Origin: a virus
IMG/VR virus record: IMGVR_UViG_3300040801_001445
Location: 1-40,249 of that record
Reading direction: 5' to 3' (one strand)
DNA length: 40,249 nucleotides
Below the pieces are notes generated by a model. The model had not been told where the DNA came from and searched no databases. It was given only the letters and a program-made list of their open reading frames with translations. A program made the translations under genes and the position numbers. Shown in pieces: positions 1,910 to 40,249 of this stretch; the first letter of the stretch is position 1; the number at the start of each line of letters is the position of its first letter.

Positions 1910-2139
1910 GGCTCGTCCTCCCCTCTGGTGTCCTCCCATCCGGTGAACGCCAGCGCCCGCGCGAGCTGATGAATCAGCTCCACCGCCTCCAGCCGGGTCA
2001 TCTCCAGGCTGGTGTGGCTGCTCTGCGCCCCGCCGAAGTGGTGAAGCCACAGGCACACGCGACGCCGCGGGTTCTCCCAGGTCAGCACCTCCGGCAGCAC
2101 GTCGATCCGCGCCCCCTGTACCCCTCGCTGCAGCTTCAC
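1906..2139 (-). CDS. Hypothetical protein, 77 aa, GTG start
   Basis: Tail of ORF-track 1906..2235 from VKLQRGVQGARIDVL. The GTG at 2139 overlaps the upstream TGA (GTGA). Confidence 0.55.
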   Translation of the reverse strand: MKLQRGVQGARIDVLPEVLTWENPRRRVCLWLHHFGGAQSSHTSLEMTRLEAVELIHQLARALAFTGWEDTRGEDEP

Positions 2140-2414
2140 AGCCCCACTCTCTCGCGGATGTCCCGCACCCAACGCAACAGCTCCAGCATCCGGGCAGCCT
2201 CCTCGTCCAGCCGGGCAGCCAGCTCGCACGAGCACTCGGGCTTGGGACTCGGGGGTGCCTCCTCGAACGACACCAAGGCGGGTCTCAGCACCGGCTGCAA
2301 GGCGTCCACAAGCAGCGCCAGCTCGTCGTTCACGCTGGTGATGTGCTCCTCCAGCAGCGTCAGCACGCCCAGGACCGTGCGCGCCTCCTGCTGCCCCATC
2401 TGAGACTTCTCCAT
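2136..2414 (-). CDS. Hypothetical protein, 92 aa, first gene of the leftward operon
   Basis: ORF-track 2136..2414, with a GAGGAGCAGGAGC SD region directly upstream of the ATG. Confidence 0.75.
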   Translation of the reverse strand: MEKSQMGQQEARTVLGVLTLLEEHITSVNDELALLVDALQPVLRPALVSFEEAPPSPKPECSCELAARLDEEAARMLELLRWVRDIRERVGL

Positions 2415-2440
2415 GCTCCTGCTCCTCTGTGGTCTGGCAC

Positions 2441-2512
2441 CTCAGAGCATCTGAGATGCTGAGGGCAGTCTGGGGGAGGGAAATCTGGGGGTCAAGCGGC
2501 TGAGATGCTCAG
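2441..2512. promoter_or_regulatory. Operator-like cluster of CTCAG/CTGAG pentamers, with a 10-mer CTGAGATGCT repeated at 2451..2460 and 2500..2509
   Basis: Seen directly. CTGAG-ATG-CTCAG forms a dyad at 2500..2512 and CTCAG-N5-CTGAG another at 2441..2455. The cluster lies 27-98 bp upstream of the first leftward gene. Confidence 0.4.
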
Positions 2513-2540
2513 GGGGTTGCGGGGGGAGTTGTGGGTGGGG
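2463..2540 (+). other. Two canonical G-quadruplex-type motifs, 2463..2491 and 2512..2540
   Basis: The G-runs read G3-N6-G5-N1-G3-N6-G5 and G5-N4-G6-N6-G3-N1-G4 on the plus strand. They flank the 2500..2512 dyad. Confidence 0.35.
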
Positions 2541-2777
2541 ATGGAAGCTCCGATCGACGACGCGGCTGTTTCCCCGGCCGGGGGTCCGCGCGGTGGGCGG
2601 AGGCGGGCTGCGGGCCGTCGTCGCACCCTCGGGCGTCGGCCAGGATCAATGATCCGCTTTCAGGGGGCGCATTTAACATAATACGGATTGCACGAAGGGC
2701 CGCATCCCTTGCATATCAATGGGTTACTGGTATCTCACATAGCCGATGGGTGCGGTAGTGCGCCGTTCCACGTCCTG

Positions 2778-2829
2778 GTACGTGTAAACGTACAGGGTCA
2801 AAGCCCCTTGCCCTTCAATGGTTTACACG
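2778..2829. repeat. Inverted pair of the genome-wide motif: CGTGTAAAC (2781..2789) and GTTTACACG (2821..2829), separated by 31 nt
   Basis: Both 9-bp arms are perfect. The left arm sits within a local dyad, GTACG-TGTAAA-CGTAC (2778..2793). Confidence 0.85.
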
Positions 2830-2960
2830 GTCCAGGCACGTCCAGGGGCGTGGGCCCGGCCCCGGCGCGGCGCCTTCGCGGCCTACTCGGAACCATCGAC
2901 ATCCCCGAACAACCACCCCCCGATCATCAGTCTTTCCCGATCCAAGCCGCTTCCTACTCG

Positions 2961-2993
2961 CCTCCCTCTTCCCCCGACTTCCTCCCTCTTCCC
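2961..2993 (+). repeat. Direct repeat of the 13-mer CCTCCCTCTTCCC (2961..2973 and 2981..2993) within a polypyrimidine tract
   Basis: Seen directly. The plus strand is pyrimidine-rich from about 2900 to 2995. Confidence 0.8.
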
Positions 2994-3464
2994 AGGCATG
3001 CCGCGGGCTCCCGCTGTGCTGCGCCCTGGGGCGCGTTCCTGCGTCCGCCTGGCCCTGGCCCGTTTCAACAGCATCGACGCTCTGGCGGCGTTCCTGGAGC
3101 GCTCACAGCGTCCGTGCCTGTCGCGCATGCTGGAACATTCCATCGCGCCGTCTCGCGCATGGGTGCGGAGCGGTTTCCTGGGGGCTTCTGGTGAGGTCGA
3201 GCGGGAGTCGAGGCGGGCAATGTCACATTGCAGAGCGGGGGCGCCTGGAGCGGCTTGCGGGGGCCTTCCCTGTAGTGGCTCTGCTGTAGCGGGTGCGAGG
3301 GTACCTACTCACTCCCTCGGCATCCTTCTCACGGTGTACCCTCCCCGTTCCGCCCGTCACGCTACACGTCCCCATCACGCTCCTGGCAGACCGTTGGTCG
3401 GGCCGCTCGTCGGGAGAGCGTTTAAACTCTGGACGGGGAGCGGCTGAGCAGCTACGGTTCAGGG

Positions 3465-3487
3465 GTCAGCGTGAGGCTGACGCTTCC
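3465..3487 (+). terminator. Hairpin GTCAGC-GTGAG-GCTGAC followed by a C/T-rich tail
   Basis: A 6-bp stem is followed by GCTTCC, immediately 5' of leader motif copy 1. Confidence 0.3.
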
Positions 3488-3505
3488 TCTTCACGGACTC
3501 GGAGA
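3488..3505 (+). promoter_or_regulatory. Conserved early-gene leader, copy 1: TCTTCACGGACTCGGAGA
   Basis: Lies 6 nt upstream of the ATG at 3512. UCUUC can pair with GGAGA (the SD), leaving ACGGACUC in the loop. Confidence 0.6.
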
Positions 3506-3511
3506 AACGCC

Positions 3512-3778
3512 ATGACCATCACCGACCGCGACACCCGAACCGCACGGGTCGCCCGCCTCGCCGCCAGCAAGCTGATGCTCGCGGAGCACGACATCCAGGC
3601 CGTCGCCGGAGAGCTTCTGAAGGCCGCGGCCCACGCGCCGGATCTGGCTCTCGTTGAAGCCTACGCGCTCCGCGATGAAGTCACGGCGCTGCGGCGCCGG
3701 CTCGCAATCCTGGCTCGCAGCGTGGAGAACGGCGACGAGTACCTTGGCGAATCCGGCATGGGCCCGGCCGCCGAGTGA
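3512..3778 (+). CDS. Hypothetical early protein, 88 aa
   Basis: Tail of ORF-track 3293..3778 from MTITDRDTRTARVARLAAS, preceded by the conserved leader and SD. Confidence 0.7.
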   Translation: MTITDRDTRTARVARLAASKLMLAEHDIQAVAGELLKAAAHAPDLALVEAYALRDEVTALRRRLAILARSVENGDEYLGESGMGPAAE

Positions 3779-3786
3779 CCGCACCA

Positions 3787-3820
3787 GGGCCCGGCGCCGA
3801 GCCGGGCCCGCCCTTCTTCT
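3787..3820 (+). terminator. Intrinsic-terminator-like hairpin GGGCCCGGC-GCCGA-GCCGGGCCC followed by a CCCTTCTTCT tail
   Basis: A perfect 9-bp GC stem with a 5-nt loop and a T/C-rich tail, directly after the stop at 3776..3778. Confidence 0.5.
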
Positions 3821-3834
3821 TCACGGACCGGAGA
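3818..3834 (+). promoter_or_regulatory. Conserved early-gene leader, copy 2: TCTTCACGGACCGGAGA
   Basis: Lies 8 nt upstream of the ATG at 3843. It has the same stem arms with a 7-nt loop containing GGA. Confidence 0.6.
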
Positions 3835-3842
3835 ACGCCACC

Positions 3843-3929
3843 ATGACCCTCGCCATTCTCGCACTCTGCACCGTCACCGGCTGGACCCTGGGACGCGCCC
3901 TCACGCGCGCCGTCGGCCTGGCCCGCTAA
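3843..3929 (+). CDS. Small hydrophobic peptide, 28 aa (MTLAILALCTVTGWTLGRALTRAVGLAR)
   Basis: The conserved leader and SD lie upstream. Third codon positions are almost all G/C. Confidence 0.55.
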   Translation: MTLAILALCTVTGWTLGRALTRAVGLAR

Positions 3930-3939
3930 ACCGCTTGCA

Positions 3940-3980
3940 GCGGGGCCGCTGAGCAGCTACTCTCGGCCCCGCTTTCATCA
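3940..3980 (+). terminator. Intrinsic-terminator-like hairpin GCGGGGCCG-N15-CGGCCCCGC followed by a TTTCATCA tail
   Basis: A perfect 9-bp stem. The loop carries the 13-mer GCTGAGCAGCTAC, which also occurs at 3443..3455. Confidence 0.5.
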
Positions 3981-3998
3981 TCTTCACGGACTCGGAGA
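3981..3998 (+). promoter_or_regulatory. Conserved early-gene leader, copy 3: TCTTCACGGACTCGGAGA
   Basis: Identical to copy 1, 7 nt upstream of the ATG at 4006. Confidence 0.6.
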
Positions 3999-4005
3999 TT
4001 CAACC

Positions 4006-4662
4006 ATGGCTACCCCTTCCGCCCTGACCACCGACCGCGAAGCCTGGCTCACGGAAGCCGCTTCGCTGCTCCTCGACACCGTCGTTGCTCCCGCTTGCCA
4101 GGCCCTCGGCCACGAGTACACCAGCGCCCTGGCCGACCTGGGCGACTCCTGGCGCGTCGCCTGCGGCTGGCCCATCGGCTCGCGTGCCGGCGCCCGCCGC
4201 GGCATTGCCGGACAGTGCTTCGCGCGCTCCGCCAGCGCTGCCGGCCTGGCCGAAGTCTTCATCTCGCCGCGGCTTTACGAGGGCCCGCAGGTTCTCGCCA
4301 CGCTTCTTCATGAGCTGCTCCACGCTGTGGACGACTGCCGCGACGGACACCGTGGCCGGTTCGCTGCCATGGCTCGCGCCGTGGGCTTCGTGGCGCCCCT
4401 CACGGAACTGCACCTCACGGACGCGCTCACGGCCGAGCTGGCCGAGATGGCCGAGCTGCTGCCGCCCTATCCGCATGCGGCCCTGGACGTGAACGCCGGC
4501 CGCAAGAAGCAGGGCACGCGCATGGTCAAGGTCGAGTGCGGCGCCTGCGGCTTCCTGTTCCGCACTACGGCCAAGCATCTGGCCGCCCTGGACGAGTCGA
4601 GCCCCTGCCCGGCCTGTCACCAGACGGAATCCCTGCTGATCGACGGAAGCGTCGGGGAATGA
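4006..4662 (+). CDS. SprT-like zinc metalloprotease domain protein with a C-terminal zinc ribbon
   Basis: ORF-track 4006..4662. It has an HELLHAVDD (HExxH) motif and C-terminal CGACG...CPACH cysteine pairs. Confidence 0.7.
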   Translation: MATPSALTTDREAWLTEAASLLLDTVVAPACQALGHEYTSALADLGDSWRVACGWPIGSRAGARRGIAGQCFARSASAAGLAEVFISPRLYEGPQVLATLLHELLHAVDDCRDGHRGRFAAMARAVGFVAPLTELHLTDALTAELAEMAELLPPYPHAALDVNAGRKKQGTRMVKVECGACGFLFRTTAKHLAALDESSPCPACHQTESLLIDGSVGE

Positions 4663-4728
4663 CCCCGGCGCCGCCGGGGGCCCTGGTCACAGCGACAGGG
4701 CCGCCGGGGGCGCCGAGCCCCATCCCCA

Positions 4729-4746
4729 TCTTCACGGAATCGGAGA
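4729..4746 (+). promoter_or_regulatory. Conserved early-gene leader, copy 4: TCTTCACGGAATCGGAGA
   Basis: Lies 7 nt upstream of the ATG at 4754 and is preceded by GC hairpins (for example GGCCCTG-N10-CAGGGCC at 4679..4702). Confidence 0.6.
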
Positions 4747-4753
4747 ACCGACC

Positions 4754-6121
4754 ATGACCGCACAAGCATCCATCATCACCAGCGAAGCGCGCGAGCGCCT
4801 CGGCCGGCCCGCGTGCCGCCAGGCCCTGGAGTCGTTCCGCGAGGCCCTTGGTCTCGTCGGCAGCGAAAGCGTGTCCGGCGTGAGCCTGGCTACGCTCGTC
4901 GATCTGAAAAACAATCCGCAGGGGACCAGCGCGAAGCGCGAGGACGCGAAGCGCGCCATGCGCCGGCTGTGCACAGCGGCTGGCTACCGATGGGCGGACG
5001 TGGAATTCGACACCATGGCGCTCGTGCTGCGCGTCGCCGAGGACCTTCACGGAATGCCCGGCGCGGAGCCGGAGCCCCAGGCGGAGCCCGAGCCCGAGCC
5101 CCAAGCCGAGCCGGAGCCGGCCCCCGAGCCGGCCCCCGAGCCGGAGCCGGAGCCGGAGCCGAGCATTGCGTCCCTGGTGGGCCCCGGCGCCGAGCCCGAT
5201 GCGGCCACGGCCCTGGCCGACGCAATCCGCCGCATCGCTGGCAGCGCCTCGGCGCCTGTGGACGAAGGCCGCGTCATCGAGCTGATCCGCCAGCATGCGG
5301 GGCCGCGGCAGACGACCACCACGCACCGGATCGAGATCCCCCAGGCGTCCGGCGATCCGGTCGTCATCGAAGGCGCGCACCCTGCCGTGCCGCGGCTGGT
5401 GCAGGCGCTGGCCGCAGGCCGCGAGCGCGTGCGCCGTGTAAACGTCCTCATGGTGGGCCCCGCCGGATCCGGCAAGACGCACGCGGCCGAGCAGGCGGCG
5501 GAAGCCCTGTCCGTGCCCTTCTACAGCATCGGCGCCGTCGACGATGCGTTCAGCATCCTGGGATTCCGGGACGCACGCGGCGAGTACCAGGCGACCGCGT
5601 TTCGCCAAGCATGGGAAGAGGGCGGCCTGTTCCTCTTCGACGAGATGGATGGCAGCGCGCCCGAGGCGCTGCTTGTGGTGAACCAGGCGCTGGCGAACGG
5701 GTGCATGGCATTCCCGGACGGAATGGTGAAGCGTCACCCGGAGTTCTACTGCATCGCCGCCGCGAACACTTACGGGCACGGCGCGGATCGGCAGTATGTG
5801 GGCCGCTCGCAACTTGATGCGGCCACGCTCGACCGCTTCGCCACCATGGCGTTCGACTATGACGCCACGCTAGAACGGAAGCTTGCTGGCGATACGGAAC
5901 AGGCGTCGCGCTGGTGCGACTACGTGCAAGCGGTCCGCCAGGCTGCGCGCACGAGCGGCGCGCGCATCATCGTCAGCATGCGCGCGAGCATCATGGGCGC
6001 CGATCTGCTCGCCGCCGGCTGGTCCGTCGAAGAAGTCTGCGAGTCCGTCCTCTGGAAAGGCTGCCCGGCCGACACGCGGGCACAGCTTGAATCCTCCGCA
6101 GGCAAGCCCACGGGAGTCTGA
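4754..6121 (+). CDS. AAA+ ATPase (AAA_5, MoxR/CobS-like) with an N-terminal Glu-Pro repeat linker
   Basis: Walker A is MVGPAGSGKTH and Walker B is LFLFDEMD. The downstream AAANTYG...LDAATLDRF region is typical of AAA_5. ORF-track 4754..6121. Confidence 0.8.
   Translation: MTAQASIITSEARERLGRPACRQALESFREALGLVGSESVSGVSLATLVDLKNNPQGTSAKREDAKRAMRRLCTAAGYRWADVEFDTMALVLRVAEDLHGMPGAEPEPQAEPEPEPQAEPEPAPEPAPEPEPEPEPSIASLVGPGAEPDAATALADAIRRIAGSASAPVDEGRVIELIRQHAGPRQTTTTHRIEIPQASGDPVVIEGAHPAVPRLVQALAAGRERVRRVNVLMVGPAGSGKTHAAEQAAEALSVPFYSIGAVDDAFSILGFRDARGEYQATAFRQAWEEGGLFLFDEMDGSAPEALLVVNQALANGCMAFPDGMVKRHPEFYCIAAANTYGHGADRQYVGRSQLDAATLDRFATMAFDYDATLERKLAGDTEQASRWCDYVQAVRQAARTSGARIIVSMRASIMGADLLAAGWSVEEVCESVLWKGCPADTRAQLESSAGKPTGV
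5063..5161 (+). repeat. Imperfect tandem GAGCCN/GCCCCN repeats encoding AEPEPQAEPEPEPQAEPEPAPEPAPEPEPEPEP
   Basis: Seen in both the DNA and the ORF-track peptide. Confidence 0.9.
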
Positions 6122-6123
6122 CC

Positions 6124-7023
6124 ATGGCGTACTTCACCGACAAGCCTGAAGAGGCGCGCGCGGTCCTGGGATTCCCGGCGCAGCGCGCGGCAATCTTCGA
6201 AAGCGTGTCCGACTTCGCCTCGTGGGCGATCCAGGCGGCACCCTCGGCGGGCGCGAGCGTCACGGTTGAGGCTTCAGACGATTGGGACTATGGCGTGGGC
6301 TTCGCTGGCATGCTGGAGCTGGCCCGCGTCGGGGGATGGCAGGAAGGCGCCGACCGCATGGCGTCCCTGTCCCTGACTCTGCCGGAAGCCGAGAGCGTGG
6401 ACACTGTGCCCAAGCGGGCGCGCCGCGTCGCTGGCTCGCGTCCGCACGCGGGAGCGGCAGCGGCCGGCTCGCCGCGCGCCATGATCCGACGCGTCCCCAC
6501 GGACCAGGCGTCCACCAGCGCAGGCGTCCGCGTGCTGCGCGTCGTGCTCCCCTGGGGGAAGTCTGCGCACGTAGAAGGCGACGCGTGCGAGCGCTACGGC
6601 GCCGCCCTGGTGGAATGCATCGACGCCACGGAAGCGGCCGGCATTCGCTGTGAAGTAGTGCTCCAGCAACAAACCGACACCGGGACCGTCGCGCGCGTTA
6701 CGGCCAAGCATGCCGGAGAGCACGTAGACCGGGCCGCCCTGGCGTTCCTGATCGCGCACCCCGCGGCCACGCGCCGGCTGCGCTTCCGCGCGCAGGAAGG
6801 GCCCGAAGGATCCTGGCCGTGCGGAAGCTACGGCGGCCCCACCACCCAGCCGTGGGCTCGCGGCGAGCGCGAGTCCGGCGCCCTGGTTTTGCCCTACATG
6901 AGCCCAGGATTCCCGCGCAAGGTCGAGACCATGGCCGAGGCGCGCGCCTACGTGCGGGCGCTCTTCGAGCAGCACATTGCCCGCCTGGCCGCGGAAGCGG
7001 CGGCGGATCCGGCGGCGGCCTGA
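6124..7023 (+). CDS. Hypothetical protein, 299 aa, partner of the AAA ATPase
   Basis: ORF-track 6124..7023. It starts 3 nt after the ATPase stop and has protein-like composition. I saw no MIDAS DxSxS motif. Confidence 0.7.
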   Translation: MAYFTDKPEEARAVLGFPAQRAAIFESVSDFASWAIQAAPSAGASVTVEASDDWDYGVGFAGMLELARVGGWQEGADRMASLSLTLPEAESVDTVPKRARRVAGSRPHAGAAAAGSPRAMIRRVPTDQASTSAGVRVLRVVLPWGKSAHVEGDACERYGAALVECIDATEAAGIRCEVVLQQQTDTGTVARVTAKHAGEHVDRAALAFLIAHPAATRRLRFRAQEGPEGSWPCGSYGGPTTQPWARGERESGALVLPYMSPGFPRKVETMAEARAYVRALFEQHIARLAAEAAADPAAA

Positions 7024-7074
7024 GCGGGCCGCCGTTCACCATCCACCACCATCCATCATTCGGAGCGTTTAAAC

Positions 7075-7437
7075 GTGACCAGACACCAACATCCCATGGC
7101 CCGCCAGCTACGCCAGCGCCCGACGCCGGCCAGCATCCCTGACCAGGCGGCGGCCCTTGTGAGCGCCTACAGCGGCCGCCAGGGGCGGCCGAGCGTGACC
7201 CTGTACCGGGACGCAGGGATCCAGGCTTGCGCCTGTCTAGCGCGCACCCTGGCCGAATCGGAAGGGAGCAAGGCCGGGACCATCGGCCTGGAGCCGTCCA
7301 GGCTGCTCCGCCGTGCGTCGAAGGGTGAGGCGCTGACCGTCCACCAGCGCGCCGCCGTGCGCGCGGAGGCCGGCAGCATCTTGCGACTCTGCGGCTGGTC
7401 CGTGACGTGGCGGGACCGCGCGGAGCTGGACCAGTGA
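7075..7437 (+). CDS. Hypothetical protein, 120 aa, GTG start
   Basis: ORF-track 7075..7437. A GGAG lies 9 nt upstream, and CGTTTAAAC sits between the SD and the GTG. Confidence 0.55.
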   Translation: MTRHQHPMARQLRQRPTPASIPDQAAALVSAYSGRQGRPSVTLYRDAGIQACACLARTLAESEGSKAGTIGLEPSRLLRRASKGEALTVHQRAAVRAEAGSILRLCGWSVTWRDRAELDQ

Positions 7438-7667
7438 CGGCGCCCGAGCGGACGGACCGGGAGGGCGCCGTGCGCGCCCGCCCTGGCGACGCGTTCACCG
7501 TGGACCAGATACCGCCCGACCGGAACGGCCGCGGAGGCTACGCCATTGTGCGCCTGGCGACGGACACGGACCCGGAGTCCGTCGTCGCCAGGCGCAACAC
7601 GTACTGCGCCGCATGGATGGCGCTTCAGAGTCTCGCCGGCGGCGAGACCATCGCAGCGGAGGAGTGA
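7434..7667 (+). CDS. Hypothetical protein, 77 aa, GTG start
   Basis: ORF-track 7407..7667 trimmed to the GTG at 7434, which overlaps the upstream TGA (GTGA) and has a GGAG 7 nt upstream. A start at 7407 cannot be excluded. Confidence 0.5.
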   Translation: MTAPERTDREGAVRARPGDAFTVDQIPPDRNGRGGYAIVRLATDTDPESVVARRNTYCAAWMALQSLAGGETIAAEE

Positions 7668-7669
7668 CC

Positions 7670-7882
7670 ATGGCCCTTCGATTCACGAGACGAGACGGCG
7701 AGGGATTCTGGATCGGCGACGCGTTCGTGCGCGTGGCCCTCGGCGGGACGCACGGCGGCCGGCAGCAAATCGGAGTCAGCGTGACGGCCGACCGGGCCGT
7801 GCGCGTGCTCCGCGAGGAGCTGGACGACCGACCGGCTCCCGACCGGCGCCCGGAATGCGCGGAGGGCCCTGGCCATGAATGA
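7670..7882 (+). CDS. csrA: CsrA/RsmA-like RNA-binding protein, 70 aa
   Basis: The peptide MALRFTRRDGEGFWIGDAFVRVALGGTHGGRQQIGVSVTADRAVRVLREEL aligns by eye with E. coli CsrA ([47 protein letters not shown]). The blocks TRRxGE, IGD, IGV and REE are shared. A strong GGAGGAG SD lies upstream. Confidence 0.6.
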   Translation: MALRFTRRDGEGFWIGDAFVRVALGGTHGGRQQIGVSVTADRAVRVLREELDDRPAPDRRPECAEGPGHE

Positions 7883-8381
7883 CCCGCTGCTGACCCCGCT
7901 CGCCGGGCGCCTGGCCCGGCGCCGCATGGGCGACACGCTGACGCTGTGGCGCCGGACGCTGGCCCTGCTCGGCGGCCCGGCTCGCTTGGCCCTGCCGACG
8001 CTCGCCCGGCCCTGGCCGGACGAGTCCGTGCCCGTGCCCACGGACCGGGAGTGTCGGGCGCGCCGCTGCCTGGCGCTGCCGGGTCCGGTCCTCTGGATGG
8101 CCGCGCCCGTGGGCACGGACGGCCAGCGCGGAGCCGTGACCCTGGACTACGTGCCCGGCCGCCGGAGCGGGCAATGGCGCGCGACCGTGCATCGGTACGG
8201 CGGGCGCCTCGTGCGCACGGCAGACTCGCCGTTCATCGCGCTGGCCCGCACCGTTTACACGGCCCAGGAATCCTGGCGCCCGGCGCTGCGGCTCGGCGAC
8301 CTGAAGCACGCGGCGGAGCTGGCCGCGCGCACCTGGCACGGCGACGCGGGCGACGCGGACCCGCGCTTCCGTTCTGAATAG
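7875..8381 (+). CDS. Hypothetical protein, 168 aa
   Basis: ORF-track 7875..8381. It overlaps the end of the CsrA-like gene by 8 nt and ends in the repeated TGAATAGACGA element, using the TAG. Confidence 0.6.
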   Translation: MNDPLLTPLAGRLARRRMGDTLTLWRRTLALLGGPARLALPTLARPWPDESVPVPTDRECRARRCLALPGPVLWMAAPVGTDGQRGAVTLDYVPGRRSGQWRATVHRYGGRLVRTADSPFIALARTVYTAQESWRPALRLGDLKHAAELAARTWHGDAGDADPRFRSE

Positions 8382-8394
8382 ACGAACCACCACC
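8374..8394 (+). repeat. Gene-end repeat, copy 1: CTGAATAGACGAACCACCACC
   Basis: Identical to the 21-mer at 8560..8580 and closely similar to 9076..9095. Confidence 0.9.
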
Positions 8395-8410
8395 CAACGG
8401 GAGACCCACC

Positions 8411-8563
8411 ATGGAATCCTTCATCACGCACCTGGCCGCTTTCGTGGTCGGAATCACCACCGGAGTGCTGTACCTGATCGCCGTCGGAGCTGCGACGGCA
8501 GCCATGCTGTGGGCGTGCTCCGCCTGCGCCGCAGCCGTGCGCCGAGCGCGCGACCGTTCCTGA
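8411..8563 (+). CDS. Small membrane protein, 50 aa (MESFITHLAAFVVGITTGVLYLIAVGAATAAMLWACSACAAAVRRARDRS)
   Basis: Manual translation. A GGGAGA SD lies upstream and third-position G/C is high. It is below the ORF-track size cut-off. Confidence 0.55.
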   Translation: MESFITHLAAFVVGITTGVLYLIAVGAATAAMLWACSACAAAVRRARDRS

Positions 8564-8580
8564 ATAGACGAACCACCACC
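8560..8580 (+). repeat. Gene-end repeat, copy 2: CTGAATAGACGAACCACCACC
   Basis: Here the TGA is the in-frame stop of 8411..8563. Confidence 0.9.
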
Positions 8581-8593
8581 AGAGGAAGAAGCC

Positions 8594-9079
8594 ATGAGCC
8601 ACAACTACAGCGACGACGAGCACAATGAAGCGCTGGAACTGTCACGAAAGCTGGTGGCAGACCTGAAAGACTGGTCCGAGCGGGACAGGCTGCACTACTT
8701 CATCGAACACTTCGCGCCGTGCGTCATGCCCGCGGCGCTGGAGCTAGGCGAGCGCCGCGAGGACGCGAAGCGCCAGGGCGATGTGACTGCCGGCGCCATG
8801 ATGCTGGCCGCACTGGCCGGCTTCCTGAAAGGCGCGCTCGAAGCGGAGGGTGCCGTCGGCATGCGCGACGGACTGACTGCCGACGAGCGCGACATACTCC
8901 ATGAGGTTTACACGAACACCGCGGAGGTCACCTACGAGTGCTCGCGCGTGGCCGGCATCGACTTCGCCGTGTTTCAGCGGCACGGCAAGTCGAAGCTGAC
9001 GGATCCCGACGAGATTGCGAAGGCGCTGCGACGCAAGCTGGACGAAGAGGGCGACGAGGGCGATCAGCTCCCGTCCTGA
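8594..9079 (+). CDS. Hypothetical acidic protein, 161 aa, last gene of the rightward operon
   Basis: ORF-track 8594..9079, with an AGAGGAAG SD upstream. Confidence 0.75.
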   Translation: MSHNYSDDEHNEALELSRKLVADLKDWSERDRLHYFIEHFAPCVMPAALELGERREDAKRQGDVTAGAMMLAALAGFLKGALEAEGAVGMRDGLTADERDILHEVYTNTAEVTYECSRVAGIDFAVFQRHGKSKLTDPDEIAKALRRKLDEEGDEGDQLPS

Positions 9080-9687
9080 ATAGACGAGCCACCACTTGTG
9101 ACGGCGGCGATGTCGGCCGCCGTCACAGCTTCGGAGCACGGCGCCTGGCAGCGCTGCGCTTCGATGTCCCCCGGCGACAGCCACAGCCCGCACGTTCCAC
9201 ACGCTCGCCCCGGCGGCACGTTGCGGACTGCTCCCTGCGGCAGCGTCACCACCTCCACGAGCCCGGTCTTCTTCGCCTCCCACATGGCCTGCGAGAGCGC
9301 CCTGGTGTAGCGCGTCTCCAGTGTCGCGAGCGGCGGGTTCCACCAGCCCCTCGGCACATTGCTCATCGCCTTGCGGCGGGGCGGCAGGAACTTCGGCAGG
9401 TGCGTGTAAACGAGCAGACGAGACGCAAGCCCATGGTGATGCATGAGCAGAGCATGGATCCCGCGCATGAGCCGGGCCTGCCGGAACCGATGGCCGTGCA
9501 GCTCTGACGAGAACCACAGCTCGGGCGCGATGGTGCGCATCAGCACGATTTCGCGGCGCATCGCCGCAGCCCGGCGGTCGTCCAGCTTGTCCGCAGGGAA
9601 CGGGCGAGGCTCGCCGGCCCCGCCCTCGTGTGCCGGACGCTCGACGCTCGTCGGGTCCGCGAAGAAATTGGCTCTGGCCGGCCGCAT
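9064..9687 (-). CDS. Hypothetical protein, 207 aa, last gene of the late operon
   Basis: ORF-track 9064..9774 trimmed to MRPARANFFADP. The ATG at 9687 lies 1 nt after the tailspike stop. The gene overlaps the convergent gene 8594..9079 by 16 bp. Confidence 0.55.
   Translation of the reverse strand: MRPARANFFADPTSVERPAHEGGAGEPRPFPADKLDDRRAAAMRREIVLMRTIAPELWFSSELHGHRFRQARLMRGIHALLMHHHGLASRLLVYTHLPKFLPPRRKAMSNVPRGWWNPPLATLETRYTRALSQAMWEAKKTGLVEVVTLPQGAVRNVPPGRACGTCGLWLSPGDIEAQRCQAPCSEAVTAADIAAVTSGGSSIQDGS
9076..9095 (+). repeat. Gene-end repeat, copy 3: CTGAATAGACGAGCCACCAC
   Basis: One mismatch to copies 1 and 2 over 20 nt. The TGA is the in-frame stop of 8594..9079. Confidence 0.85.
9097..9127. 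terminator. Hairpin at the convergence of the two transcription units: TGTGACGGCGGC-N7-GCCGCCGTCACA
   Basis: A perfect 12-bp stem at the point where the plus and minus operons meet. There is no clear U-tract. It lies inside the 3' end of the 9064..9687 reading frame. Confidence 0.5.
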
Positions 9688-9688
9688 C

Positions 9689-11218
9689 TCAGCGCGTGAT
9701 CCCGATGGCGGCCAGGTCCGCGAGCAGCGTGCCCACCACGTCGGCAAGCTCGGCGACCGTGGTCGAGTCCGCATCGAACGCCCGGTCCGTCGTGACGTTC
9801 GTGGCCGTGTAGTCCTGCGCGATCTGCTGGTTGATCTTGTTCGTGATCGCCCCCGATCCCACCTCCACCTCGCGGTTGCGGTAGGCGACCAGCGTGCCGA
9901 CCGTGCCGCCGCTGGTGTCGAGCACGTCGGTGATGTCGCAGCCGGTGCTGCCGGTGCCGGCGATGAGCACGTTGTCTGCGATGGCGCCGTCGATGGTGCC
10001 GCTGACCAGTTGAAACACGTCGGTGATGCTCCAGTCGCTGGCGCTCTCCTCGTCGCCGATGCAGTTCGCGTGTGCCTGGAGGTTCACGAACCGGCCGGAG
10101 CCGGGGTCCATCTCCAGCACATGGTCGATGGTGCCCGAAGGCCGGACGTGGTTGCCCCGGAAGGACAGCGCCGTGGCTGGCACCGTGGACGTGGAGCCGA
10201 TGGACACTAGGTCGTAGTTCGCGGAGCCGGACGCCGGGCAGGTGAAGAAGTTGCCGTCGATCCGCACGCCGTAGCAGCGGCGCGCGAACACCATGAAGTC
10301 GCCGTCGTTTGCCTTGTCGCGCGGCGCGAACGTGCAGCCCAGGATGTTGAGGATCGCGCCGTCGATGGCCGAGATGCCACCGATGCTCTGCGTGAAGCCG
10401 CAGCCCTGCACTTCTACCTGCTGTTCGTCGAAGTCCTCGAAGATGATCCCGCCGTAGGGCACGTTCGACACGGCGTTGACGGTCTCGGAGAACGTGGTGC
10501 CGGTGACGCCGCAGGCGGTGAACGCGCAATCGCGCACGCGGGTCTGACCGCCCACCTCGAAGTCCATGCCCCATGCGTAGGTGGTGTCCACGCGGCAGCG
10601 CGTCACGGTCAGGTCGCCGCACGAACGACCCACCATGCCCTGGTGGTTGTCCGTGAACACGCACTCGTCCACCGAAACGTGCGTGCCCGGCCCCAGGTAC
10701 AGGCCGCACCCGCCGCCGCGCGTTGTCTGCGAGTTGATCGTGGTCGATCCCTGGCGCTTGAAGTGCTCGAAGCGGCAGTTCCGGATGTGCGTGCTGCGGG
10801 GGAAGCCGGGCACGGCGTCGCGCGTCAGCGCCAGGCCGGCAGCCTCGGCCGTGCCTGTGGCGCTGTCGGTGCCCTCGAAGCCGAGCCCTTCGATTTCCAG
10901 TTCGTCGGCGTCGATGATCGTGATGCCCACGGCGCCGTCGCCGGTGCAGTTGAACACGACGTGGCCACTCGCCCCGAGGATGCGCTTCGGTCCCGTCGCC
11001 GTAGACCAGTCGATGCTGACGGGCGTCGTGAGCAGCGGCGTGCCGGGCGGGAAGTACAGCTCGCCCACGTCGTCGTTGTCCCGCAGCGCGGTCAGCGCGG
11101 CGAGCACGGCGGCGCCGTCGTCGGTCGTGCCGTCGCCGGTGACGCCGTAGTCGGCGGCCGAGATGGAACCGTAGCGCCGCGCGTCGAAGCTGGAGCCGCG
11201 TGCCTTCGTCATGACCAT
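9689..11218 (-). CDS. Tailspike or tail-fibre protein with a right-handed beta-helix (pectate-lyase-like) fold, a probable polysaccharide depolymerase
   Basis: ORF-track 9689..11218. It has periodic beta-helix-type repeats (NCRFEHF, CVFTDNHQG, VTRCRVD, VRDCAFTACG, VQGCGFTQS, ILGCTFAP) and lies at the distal end of the virion module. Confidence 0.65.
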   Translation of the reverse strand: MVMTKARGSSFDARRYGSISAADYGVTGDGTTDDGAAVLAALTALRDNDDVGELYFPPGTPLLTTPVSIDWSTATGPKRILGASGHVVFNCTGDGAVGITIIDADELEIEGLGFEGTDSATGTAEAAGLALTRDAVPGFPRSTHIRNCRFEHFKRQGSTTINSQTTRGGGCGLYLGPGTHVSVDECVFTDNHQGMVGRSCGDLTVTRCRVDTTYAWGMDFEVGGQTRVRDCAFTACGVTGTTFSETVNAVSNVPYGGIIFEDFDEQQVEVQGCGFTQSIGGISAIDGAILNILGCTFAPRDKANDGDFMVFARRCYGVRIDGNFFTCPASGSANYDLVSIGSTSTVPATALSFRGNHVRPSGTIDHVLEMDPGSGRFVNLQAHANCIGDEESASDWSITDVFQLVSGTIDGAIADNVLIAGTGSTGCDITDVLDTSGGTVGTLVAYRNREVEVGSGAITNKINQQIAQDYTATNVTTDRAFDADSTTVAELADVVGTLLADLAAIGITR

Positions 11219-22135: not shown

Positions 22136-22611
22136 GCAGGTGCCTCCGTGAAGGCGGCCAGCGCAGCTTCGGCGGAGACGAGCTGCTGCGGCTGGTCGCG
22201 GTCAGGTCGGATGCCGCCCCACAGTGCAGGGGCGCCAGGGGCGTTGCTCCGCCGAACGTCGAGATGAAGGCCGGGCGTCGGGCGCCAGTGCGGGTACACG
22301 CCGACGCCGGTGAAGCCGGCGCCGATCGCGACCTTCTGCGCGCGCTCCAAGTCCCACTGCGTCTTGATGCCGCCGGGCAGCACATCGACCGCGCGCACCA
22401 TCTTCCAGCGCGAGAAATTGTGCTGGCTGCCGCTGTCGTCCTCGCGCCCGATGGCGCCGTCCACCGGCGAGATGGTCACGGGCTTGCCCCAGGCGCCACG
22501 GAACGCGTCCAGCCGCACGAGCAGCACCGGGTCGAGCAGGCGCGCCCAGCCGCGGAACTCTTCCTCGTGGAAGTACGATGGCGTGTAAACGTCCCAGGGG
22601 TTCGGGCTCAT
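22132..22611 (-). CDS. Endolysin, peptidase M15 (zinc D-Ala-D-Ala carboxypeptidase-like) family
   Basis: ORF-track 22132..22620 trimmed to the ATG at 22611 (MSPNPWDVYTP), which overlaps the upstream stop. The segment GSQHNFSRWKMVRAVDV has an H...D metal-site-like motif. Confidence 0.55.
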   Translation of the reverse strand: MSPNPWDVYTPSYFHEEEFRGWARLLDPVLLVRLDAFRGAWGKPVTISPVDGAIGREDDSGSQHNFSRWKMVRAVDVLPGGIKTQWDLERAQKVAIGAGFTGVGVYPHWRPTPGLHLDVRRSNAPGAPALWGGIRPDRDQPQQLVSAEAALAAFTEAPA

Positions 22612-40103: not shown

Positions 40104-40249
40104 GCCTCATCCTCCCCGCTATCCGTGCCGATCGCTGCGCGAGCGCGATACACGCAGTCCATGTCGCGCTCGTATCGGCGCATCATGTCGGGGTACTGCT
40201 CGCGGTCGGGGTACTCCTGATCGACTCGCTCGGCCAGATCGTCCGCGCA
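40100..40249 (-). CDS. 3' part of the junction-spanning 92-aa ORF (the same gene as 1..246)
   Basis: The stop lies at 40100..40102. The frame is open to the window end and in phase with 1..246 once the 117-bp duplicate is collapsed. Confidence 0.7.
   Translation of the reverse strand, partial: CADDLAERVDQEYPDREQYPDMMRRYERDMDCVYRARAAIGTDSGEDEA
40133..40249. repeat. Right copy of the 117-bp direct terminal duplication
   Basis: Identical to 1..117. Confidence 0.95.

Follow-up and report, generated by a model that had tools for sequence, protein, structure and literature searches.

A divergent CsrA-like phage protein and repeated GGA leaders that may be its targets in the same operon

The locus at 7670-7882 of a viral genome raises the question of whether a small phage-encoded protein resembling CsrA could act on the repeated GGA leaders at the front of its own operon, as the original prediction proposed. 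The window, by which we mean the whole stretch of 40,249 bases that was analysed, is a phage genome. Its ends carry a 117-bp exact direct terminal repeat (1-117 = 40133-40249), and the 40,249 bases are therefore a complete genome, either terminally redundant or circularly assembled. Its products include a capsid protein that matches Phage_capsid_2 (E=2e-90), a portal/head-tail adaptor, tail tube-like proteins, an internal virion protein and a tail spike, as well as RecT-like, RecE-like and O-like replication proteins. The portal shares ~33% identity with its counterparts in HTVC010P-like pelagiphages and in other podoviruses that infect Proteobacteria, and a search of INPHARED gave no close DNA or protein relative of the window; the lineage is one of podovirus-like phages of ~40 kb. 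The contig was deposited at NCBI within a MAG labelled "Halieaceae bacterium" (a gammaproteobacterium), a host label that comes from binning only.

The majority of the genes lie on the - strand, and a module of 11 genes (3512-9079) occupies the + strand. The two groups diverge across ~1.1 kb (2415-3511) that holds no convincing ORF. The genes of the + strand module that matter here are the following.

3512-3778, + strand: cistron 1, 88 aa, no family match, downstream of leader 1
3843-3929, + strand: cistron 2, a 28-aa hydrophobic peptide conserved in the related contig L001, downstream of leader 2
4006-4662, + strand: cistron 3, a SprT-like/zinc-ribbon protein of 218 aa, downstream of leader 3
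4754-6121, + strand: cistron 4, an AAA_5/MoxR-CobS-like ATPase of 455 aa, downstream of leader 4
6124-7023, + strand: DUF7192 gene, 2 nt past the stop of cistron 4
7670-7882, + strand: csrA-like gene, 70 aa, the eighth cistron of the operon

A sigma-70 promoter scan of 2000-9300 called no promoter. By eye, promoter-like pairs can be picked out at ~3430-3458 (TGGACG-N17-TACGGT) and ~3935-3962 (TTGCAG-N17-TACTCT), with matches at ~7 of 12 positions. A repeated element, CG(T/C)TAAAC...GGGG(A/C)(G/C)CGCTGAGCAGCTAC, is found on the + strand at 3419-3455 and 3924-3960, upstream of leaders 1 and 3. It encloses these weak sigma-70-like hexamers and is kept in L001 at 61-100 and ~897-957. The accessory operon on the + strand is probably early, a timing suggested by the weak promoter-like sequences seen by eye.

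The csrA-like ORF runs from ATG 7670 to TGA 7880-7882, starts 2 nt past the upstream stop (7665-7667), overlaps the next gene by 8 nt and encodes a protein that begins MALRFTRRDGEGFWIGDAFVRV. An in-frame ATG at 7613 was considered as the start and set aside; position 7670 was preferred because it adjoins the preceding stop, has GGAGGAG 7-13 nt upstream and agrees with the homologues, all of which begin MAL(R/I/L)(F/L/I).

That the 70-aa product is CsrA-like was borne out by several profile searches. The comparison with the Pfam CsrA model (PF02599) that had been suggested came out significant by E value (1.1e-5; residues 3-53, model positions 2-49 of 53), but the score of 25.7 bits falls narrowly below the gathering threshold of 27 bits. 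PHROG 9500, annotated as "CsrA-like regulator", matches at E=9e-5. A single-sequence phmmer search of the PDB returned only CsrA, RsmA and RsmE chains (E=3e-3 to 6e-3, with a truncated CsrA at E=0.13), and a profile built from 14 subfamily sequences matched 2BTI, 1Y00, 1VPZ, 5Z38, 7YR6 and 2JPP at E=9e-18 to 5e-16. By sequence, we assign the product to the CsrA family of small dimeric RNA-binding proteins as a divergent member. The NCBIfam equivalog models NF002469 and TIGR00202 were missed by a wide margin (20.8 vs 73 bits and 13.4 vs 70.1 bits; five phage relatives also score far below), which argues for a divergent paralogue and against a recently captured host csrA.

The subfamily is small. 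An exhaustive HMMER search of 1.84 billion protein representatives recovered just 20 proteins at E<=1e-3, most of them CsrA-like proteins of 59-87 aa that share the signature "GEGFWIGD ... VLREEL-DDRP-PD", and the subfamily was not found in INPHARED, IMG/VR or GTDB genomes. The proteins P0004, P0006, P0008, P0010 and P0012 are 613-7041 aa long, and each aligns with the 70-aa query at 5-15 places along its length, which may mean that they are built from tandem repeats of CsrA-like or similar beta-hairpins.

We aligned the residues of the phage protein with E. coli CsrA, two Pseudomonas-type sequences and B. subtilis CsrA. Sequence identity is 32-35% to the three gammaproteobacterial CsrA-type sequences and 20% to B. 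subtilis CsrA. The sole invariant columns are L3, R7, A40, R48 and E50, which correspond to L2, R6, A36, R44 and E46 of CsrA. The contacts of strand beta1 (L2, L4, R6 and R7 in CsrA) become L3, F5, R7 and R8, and those of beta5 (V40, V42, R44 and I47) become V44, V46, R48 and L51. L4 and R44 are the CsrA residues most critical for RNA binding (PMC7652899); the replacement of L4 by F is a conservative change. The TRRxGE, IGD, IGV and REE blocks are kept. The protein departs from canonical CsrA in a four-residue insertion between strands 3 and 4, in AD for AP, and in its C-terminus, where a proline-rich acidic tail replaces the helix of CsrA.

An AF2 monomer model (pLDDT 75.4) places strands at 2-8, 12-15, 18-21, 33-39 and 46-48, together with a 3-residue helix. 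The suggested structure prediction gave five strands and a short helix in CsrA order, and the fold search did not reach significance: the best Foldseek matches in the PDB are RsmF/RsmN, at E=1.3-1.5 and TM 0.5 for a monomer query, and the CsrA-family folds have E>1. A BFVD structure search with the same monomer returned nothing significant. These weak results are unsurprising, since a monomer model makes a poor query for a strand-swapped dimer fold.

Syntenic homologues of the gene occur on contigs from at least seven independent metagenomic samples (L001, L002, L003, L133, L134 and L142-L144). The shared order is the DUF7192 gene, a gene of 117-120 aa, one of 64-86 aa, the csrA-like gene, a gene of 140-173 aa and a convergent tail-spike gene. 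Precomputed PF02599 matches in these relatives are unmarked in L133 and L142 (E<=1e-5) and flagged as "weak" in L001 and L134. Pairwise dN/dS of the csrA-like gene is 0.33-0.59 with dS up to ~1.1, and the first 21 residues are near-invariant among the relatives. This phage lineage maintains the gene.

We also searched more widely for relatives. Neither of the two proteins used as queries against IMG/VR, CsrA-like and DUF7192, yielded any, and the leader pattern gave only 120+ single-copy chance matches there. In the metagenome collection, an alignment of SprT found no match and a 19-mer of the leader gave nine single-copy chance matches; GTDB genomes searched with the subfamily alignment yielded nothing. 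Contigs L138-L141, which carry more distant SprT-like homologues, were considered as controls that lack csrA and were rejected as unrelated phages. No csrA-less relative of this lineage was found in the IMG/VR, metagenome or GTDB searches.

The second half of the question concerns the leaders, whose elements in the window are as follows.

3486-3511, + strand: leader 1; UCUUC 3488-3492, loop ACGGACUC 3493-3500 (GGA 3495-3497), GGAGA 3501-3505, ATG 3512
3816-3842, + strand: leader 2; UCUUC 3818-3822, loop ACGGACC 3823-3829, GGAGA 3830-3834, ATG 3843
3979-4005, + strand: leader 3; UCUUC 3981-3985, loop ACGGACUC 3986-3993, GGAGA 3994-3998, ATG 4006
4727-4753, + strand: leader 4; UCUUC 4729-4733, loop ACGGAAUC 4734-4741, GGAGA 4742-4746, ATG 4754

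The four leaders named in the original prediction were recovered as a genuine repeat family. A repeat search found four copies (3486-3515, 3816-3845, 3979-4008 and 4727-4756), each intergenic and ending at an ATG, and an HMM built from 10 leader copies matched exactly these four in the 40-kb genome (E<=1.3e-4; next match E=0.17). The core reads YCUUC-ACGGAMUC-GGAGA, followed by 6-8 nt and then the ATG, and CU-rich tracts precede all copies. The string TTCACGGANNCGGAGA has three exact copies and, with up to three mismatches, 21 matches vs 4.4 expected. The shorter CUUCANGGA occurs seven times in the window against ~0.7 expected, as estimated from base composition, and five of the seven occurrences lie directly before start codons. 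Only one start-proximal CUUCANGGA exists in the genome besides the four leaders, within a variant that has a single GGA.

22136-22157, - strand: single-GGA variant CCUUCACGGAGG, forming the SD of a 70-aa gene at 22135-21923 (-)

The csrA-like gene does not carry the leader motif at its own ribosome-binding site.

Comparison with relatives indicates which parts of the leaders are kept. L001, whose SprT is 89% identical, has five leader copies. One of them has CAAGGA for CACGGA, which keeps the GGA, and two have CCUUC...GGAGG for UCUUC...GGAGA, which turns a U-A into a C-G at the closing pair. In L134 (SprT 63% identical), CUUCACGGAUUGGAG is all that still aligns with the window in the intergenic stretch ahead of the ATPase gene, and the survival of this block reads as a clear phylogenetic footprint. 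Leaders and a csrA-like gene are found together in all three genomes compared (the window, L001 and L134). L001 also carries a 103-aa gene (476-787) that the window lacks; it lies between cistrons 1 and 2 and has one of two identical leader copies, CCCTTCACGGATCGGAGGAC, on either side, which suggests that the leaders are joints for the gain and loss of gene cassettes.

RNAfold predicts a 5-bp hairpin, (U)CUUC/GGAG(A), in which the first GGA lies in a loop of 7-8 nt and the Shine-Dalgarno sequence forms the 3' arm. As had been proposed, CACGGA is placed in a loop next to GGAGA: this hairpin is the predicted MFE fold in three of the four window leaders and in seven of nine leaders overall, the MFE of leader 4 being an alternative structure. 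The 5-bp stem is intact in 9 of 10 leader copies (base pairs counted with a script, since MAFFT misplaced the 1-nt indel of the loop). The predicted energies of -3.8 to -5.2 kcal/mol are no more stable than those of shuffled sequences (z -0.2 to +1.0), and covariation is seen at one pair, in two L001 copies that are near-identical paralogues, and probably reflects a single event. GGAGA stands 6-8 nt before every ATG and is the 3' arm, so the predicted site overlaps the Shine-Dalgarno sequence.

A further hairpin adjoins the first leader.

3465-3481, + strand: GC-rich hairpin directly 5' of leader 1

Its stem changes from GUCAGC/GCUGAC to GUCGGC/GCCGAC in L001, a compensatory replacement, and it could be either a 5' stabiliser or a weak terminator.

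The leaders resemble a known ligand of the family. The hcnA SD RNA, with its native part GGGCUUCACGGAUGAAGCCC, is a high-affinity RsmE ligand for which an RsmE-RNA structure exists (PDB 2JPP; PMC13287468, PMC11882435). The stretch CUUCACGGA of the phage leaders is identical to the first 9 nt of that native part, from the 5' arm of the stem to the fifth nucleotide of the loop. The E. coli SELEX consensus RUACARGGAUGU (PMC7652899) is matched only in part (~6 of 12 positions), with UCA for the invariant ACA and C for R. In the high-affinity SELEX ligands of E. coli CsrA, GGA lies in the loops of hairpins with at most four contiguous pairs (PMC7652899), so the weak stem of the leaders is no objection. 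Overall, the four leaders resemble a CsrA/RsmE site in sequence and in predicted shape.

One caveat raised at the outset concerned the close spacing of the two GGA elements. They start 6 nt apart in the leaders (5 nt in leader 2), and the bridging of two sites by one CsrA dimer needs 10-63 nt (PMC7652899); the caveat holds in that 5-6 nt is below the bridging minimum of 10 nt, but not in treating the second GGA as a second site, because this GGA is base-paired in the hairpin model. Each leader would then be a single-site target that hides its own SD, and single-site targets of CsrA are known (PMC7652899).

With the RNA-contact residues of beta1 and beta5 kept, recognition of GGA in short hairpin loops, as by CsrA and RsmE, would be the most likely activity of the phage protein. 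The best candidate targets would be the four leaders of the first four cistrons in its own operon. By seating one face of its dimer on the loop GGA, the protein would hold the hairpin shut and keep ribosomes off their binding site, and translation of cistrons 1-4 would fall with growing amounts of the protein, so that the first genes of the operon come under negative feedback. GGA targets of the host would be open to it as well. The sequences show the family relationship, the conservation of the gene, the repeated and conserved leaders and their likeness to a known high-affinity site; we infer the RNA binding, the identity of the targets, the sign of the regulation and its timing. The reading we favour tentatively, with a confidence somewhat short of even, is repression of cistrons 1-4 by the CsrA-like protein, which would bind the GGA of the loop, stabilise the hairpin and deny ribosomes access.

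A broader proposal is that a phage-specific CsrA paralogue and four or five dedicated hairpin operators at the first cistrons of its operon form a self-contained viral Csr circuit for translational feedback or timing, independent of the host Csr system and able perhaps to work in a host that has no csrA, with the GGA-rich - strand at 2880-3050 as a possible source of an antagonist RNA. We consider this whole assembly rather doubtful.

The stretch at 2880-3050 (-), inside the divergent region 2415-3511, has the highest GGA density in the genome, with 12 per 150 nt (2900-3049) against a mean of 3.3 (sd 1.8). It holds the tandem GGGAAGAGGGAGG twice and is overlapped by an 86-aa Arg-rich ORF (3143-2883, -). 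The GGA content may belong to a GGA-rich RNA or reflect a CU-rich tract on the opposite strand. A sponge RNA of the CsrB/RsmY/RsmZ kind in this region found no support in folding, which is no better than for shuffles (z=+1.1). Rfam gave no family match, and no relative covers 2880-3050.

In an alternative that needs no CsrA at the leaders, these combine a pyrimidine-rich tract with a strong SD as a translation-initiation cassette that was duplicated and doubles as a recombination joint, with the CsrA-like protein acting on host targets only. A plain SD, however, has no need of an invariant CUUCA-GGA 5' of it, and this block persists in L134 despite completely diverged flanks. The gain of the 103-aa gene in L001 between identical leader copies is what cassette insertion predicts, and the CU-rich tracts before all copies, together with the thermodynamic insignificance of the hairpin, also suit a cassette. 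The lone substitution (C to A, in L001) nonetheless keeps the A(N)GGA/CANGGA pattern, and the 9-nt identity to a known CsrA-family ligand would have to be a coincidence. Two further observations speak for the cassette: the Vibrio phage VvAW1 has csrA without such leaders, and a second, unrelated repeated leader family (8365, 8551 and 9067) stands in the same operon, which makes repeated leaders a habit of this genome. We hold this alternative to be possible but somewhat unlikely.

The second leader family, GCTYCCGTYCTGAATAGACGARCCACCAC, has no GGA loop motif and is found at the following positions.

8365-8393, + strand: copy of GCTYCCGTYCTGAATAGACGARCCACCAC, matching L001 position 5570
8551-8579, + strand: copy of GCTYCCGTYCTGAATAGACGARCCACCAC, matching L001 position 5774
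9067-9095, + strand: copy of GCTYCCGTYCTGAATAGACGARCCACCAC, matching L001 position 6297

These copies precede the SD and ATG of the genes at 8411 and 8594 and a GTG ORF at 9098-9310 (GC3 0.89), which overlaps a - strand ORF at 9064-9774.

The leaders might also be read by the CsrA/RsmA of the host, tying the first phage genes to host physiology; the main targets of the phage homologue would then be host mRNAs or sponge RNAs, or it would compete or mix with the host protein at the leaders. Any canonical CsrA should bind the leaders, given that 9 nt of their core are identical to a cellular RsmE site (PMC13287468), and host CsrA would be there at infection ahead of any phage protein. The contig is filed under a Halieaceae MAG, and CsrA is typical of the gammaproteobacteria (PMC7652899), but that assignment is one of metagenomic binning only. 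The presence of a divergent csrA in the same operon of every relative seen is left unexplained. Reading by host CsrA is compatible with action of the phage protein and does not exclude it; as the main explanation we judge it unlikely. Very improbable is that the ORF is no longer an RNA-binding CsrA and is instead a decayed copy or one re-used, for example, for protein binding: scores under the curated cut-offs, the altered strand 3-4 region, the missing C-terminal helix and a dN/dS that is just moderately low would fit, but the 21 N-terminal residues hardly vary among relatives, the equivalents of R44 and R6 do not vary at all, and the position of the gene is kept across contigs diverged up to dS ~1.

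We compared the favoured reading, repression of cistrons 1-4 by the phage protein, with known systems. The protein is like CsrA, RsmA and RsmE (PF02599; PDB 1Y00, 2BTI, 1VPZ and 2JPP) in size, strand order, motif blocks and the equivalents of R44, R6, L2 and E46, and the leaders are predicted to be like the RsmE-hcnA site, where GGA lies in a short hairpin loop at the ribosome-binding site. Unlike bacterial csrA, the phage gene shares an operon with its putative targets. A csrA-family gene is likewise present in other tailed phages, including the F116/H66/LKA5 group, Vibrio phages, VvAW1 and PTXU04 with its gp28 (PHROG 9500; PMC7366521, PMC11879866). Thirty phage csrA genes were listed in 2020 (PMC7366521), and a tblastn search with E. 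coli CsrA gave 88 records at E<=1e-3 (one of them a Salmonella genome record), mostly Pseudomonas and Vibrio phages. The 88 records are 45-100% identical to E. coli CsrA and look like recent captures, whereas the protein of the window belongs to the distinct "GEGFWIGD" subfamily.

Knockdown of PTXU04 gp28 gives smaller plaques, and according to that 2025 study the role of phage csrA in the life cycle had not been tested before (PMC11879866). We found no report in the literature of RNA targets of a phage CsrA or of operators in the phage's own genome, and the one csrA-bearing Vibrio phage genome checked, VvAW1, has no repeated GGA leaders. The earlier remark of not being aware of a described phage CsrA paired with operators in its own genome agrees with this. 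Phage csrA itself is known from the 30 genes listed (PMC7366521) and the 88 records; what appears undescribed is only a phage csrA together with cis targets in the same genome.

T4 RegA is a small protein of an early transcript that represses several early mRNAs by binding where their translation is initiated. The logic of the proposed circuit is the same, while the fold and the recognition sequence are unrelated and RegA is proven by experiment. CsrA paralogues are also found on other mobile elements, namely RsmQ on a plasmid (PMC9928087) and CsrT on a Legionella ICE (as cited in PMC7366521). In these cases, as proposed here, a mobile element has its own CsrA-family regulator, which is proposed or shown to control genes of the host and/or the element; they are carried by a plasmid and an ICE, not a virus, and an array of identical operators in their own operon is undescribed for them.

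Phage csrA genes are common, and this genome offers a hypothesis, not a proof, of what one of them may do, and one that is cheap to test. A defined protein can be combined with four near-identical candidate operators of 20 nt and with their natural variants (C-to-A in the loop, U-A to C-G in the stem). If the reading is true, a global bacterial regulator would have been re-used as a dedicated viral translational repressor, and the protein and its operators would form a compact orthogonal pair for synthetic biology. If it is refuted, the leaders would be repeated translation-initiation cassettes that mark mosaic joints.

Several other repeats were seen in the genome. The near-palindrome CGT(T/G)TA(A/C)ACG is strongly over-represented (CGTTTAAAC with at most one mismatch has 54 strand-matches vs 1.2 expected). 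Its ~30 sites are spread window-wide over coding and intergenic DNA, for example at 2781, 3419, 5435, 7066, 8252, 9403, 13315, 17576, 21349, 22582, 26331, 27892, 32725, 33645, 36246 and 39190, and it is present in the relatives L001 (61-70) and L134 (759, 3019, 4470 and 5215). Some copies adjoin gene starts, such as GGAGCGTTTAAAC-GTG at 7075 and GGAGCGTTTAATC-ATG at 11218 (-). Candidate roles for it are a DNA-binding site, a promoter element and a packaging signal.

At 2700-2830 (+), an AT-richer patch of the divergent region holds the direct repeats CCCTTGCATATCAATGGGTTAC and CCCTTGCCCTTCAATGGTTTAC and two CGTGTAAACG sites, and may be an operator, an origin or an attP-like region. Within the AAA ATPase gene, a degenerate tandem repeat of 12/18 nt at 5052-5171 (+) encodes a low-complexity linker, (P-E/A-P-E-P-Q-A-E), in the N-terminal part of the protein.
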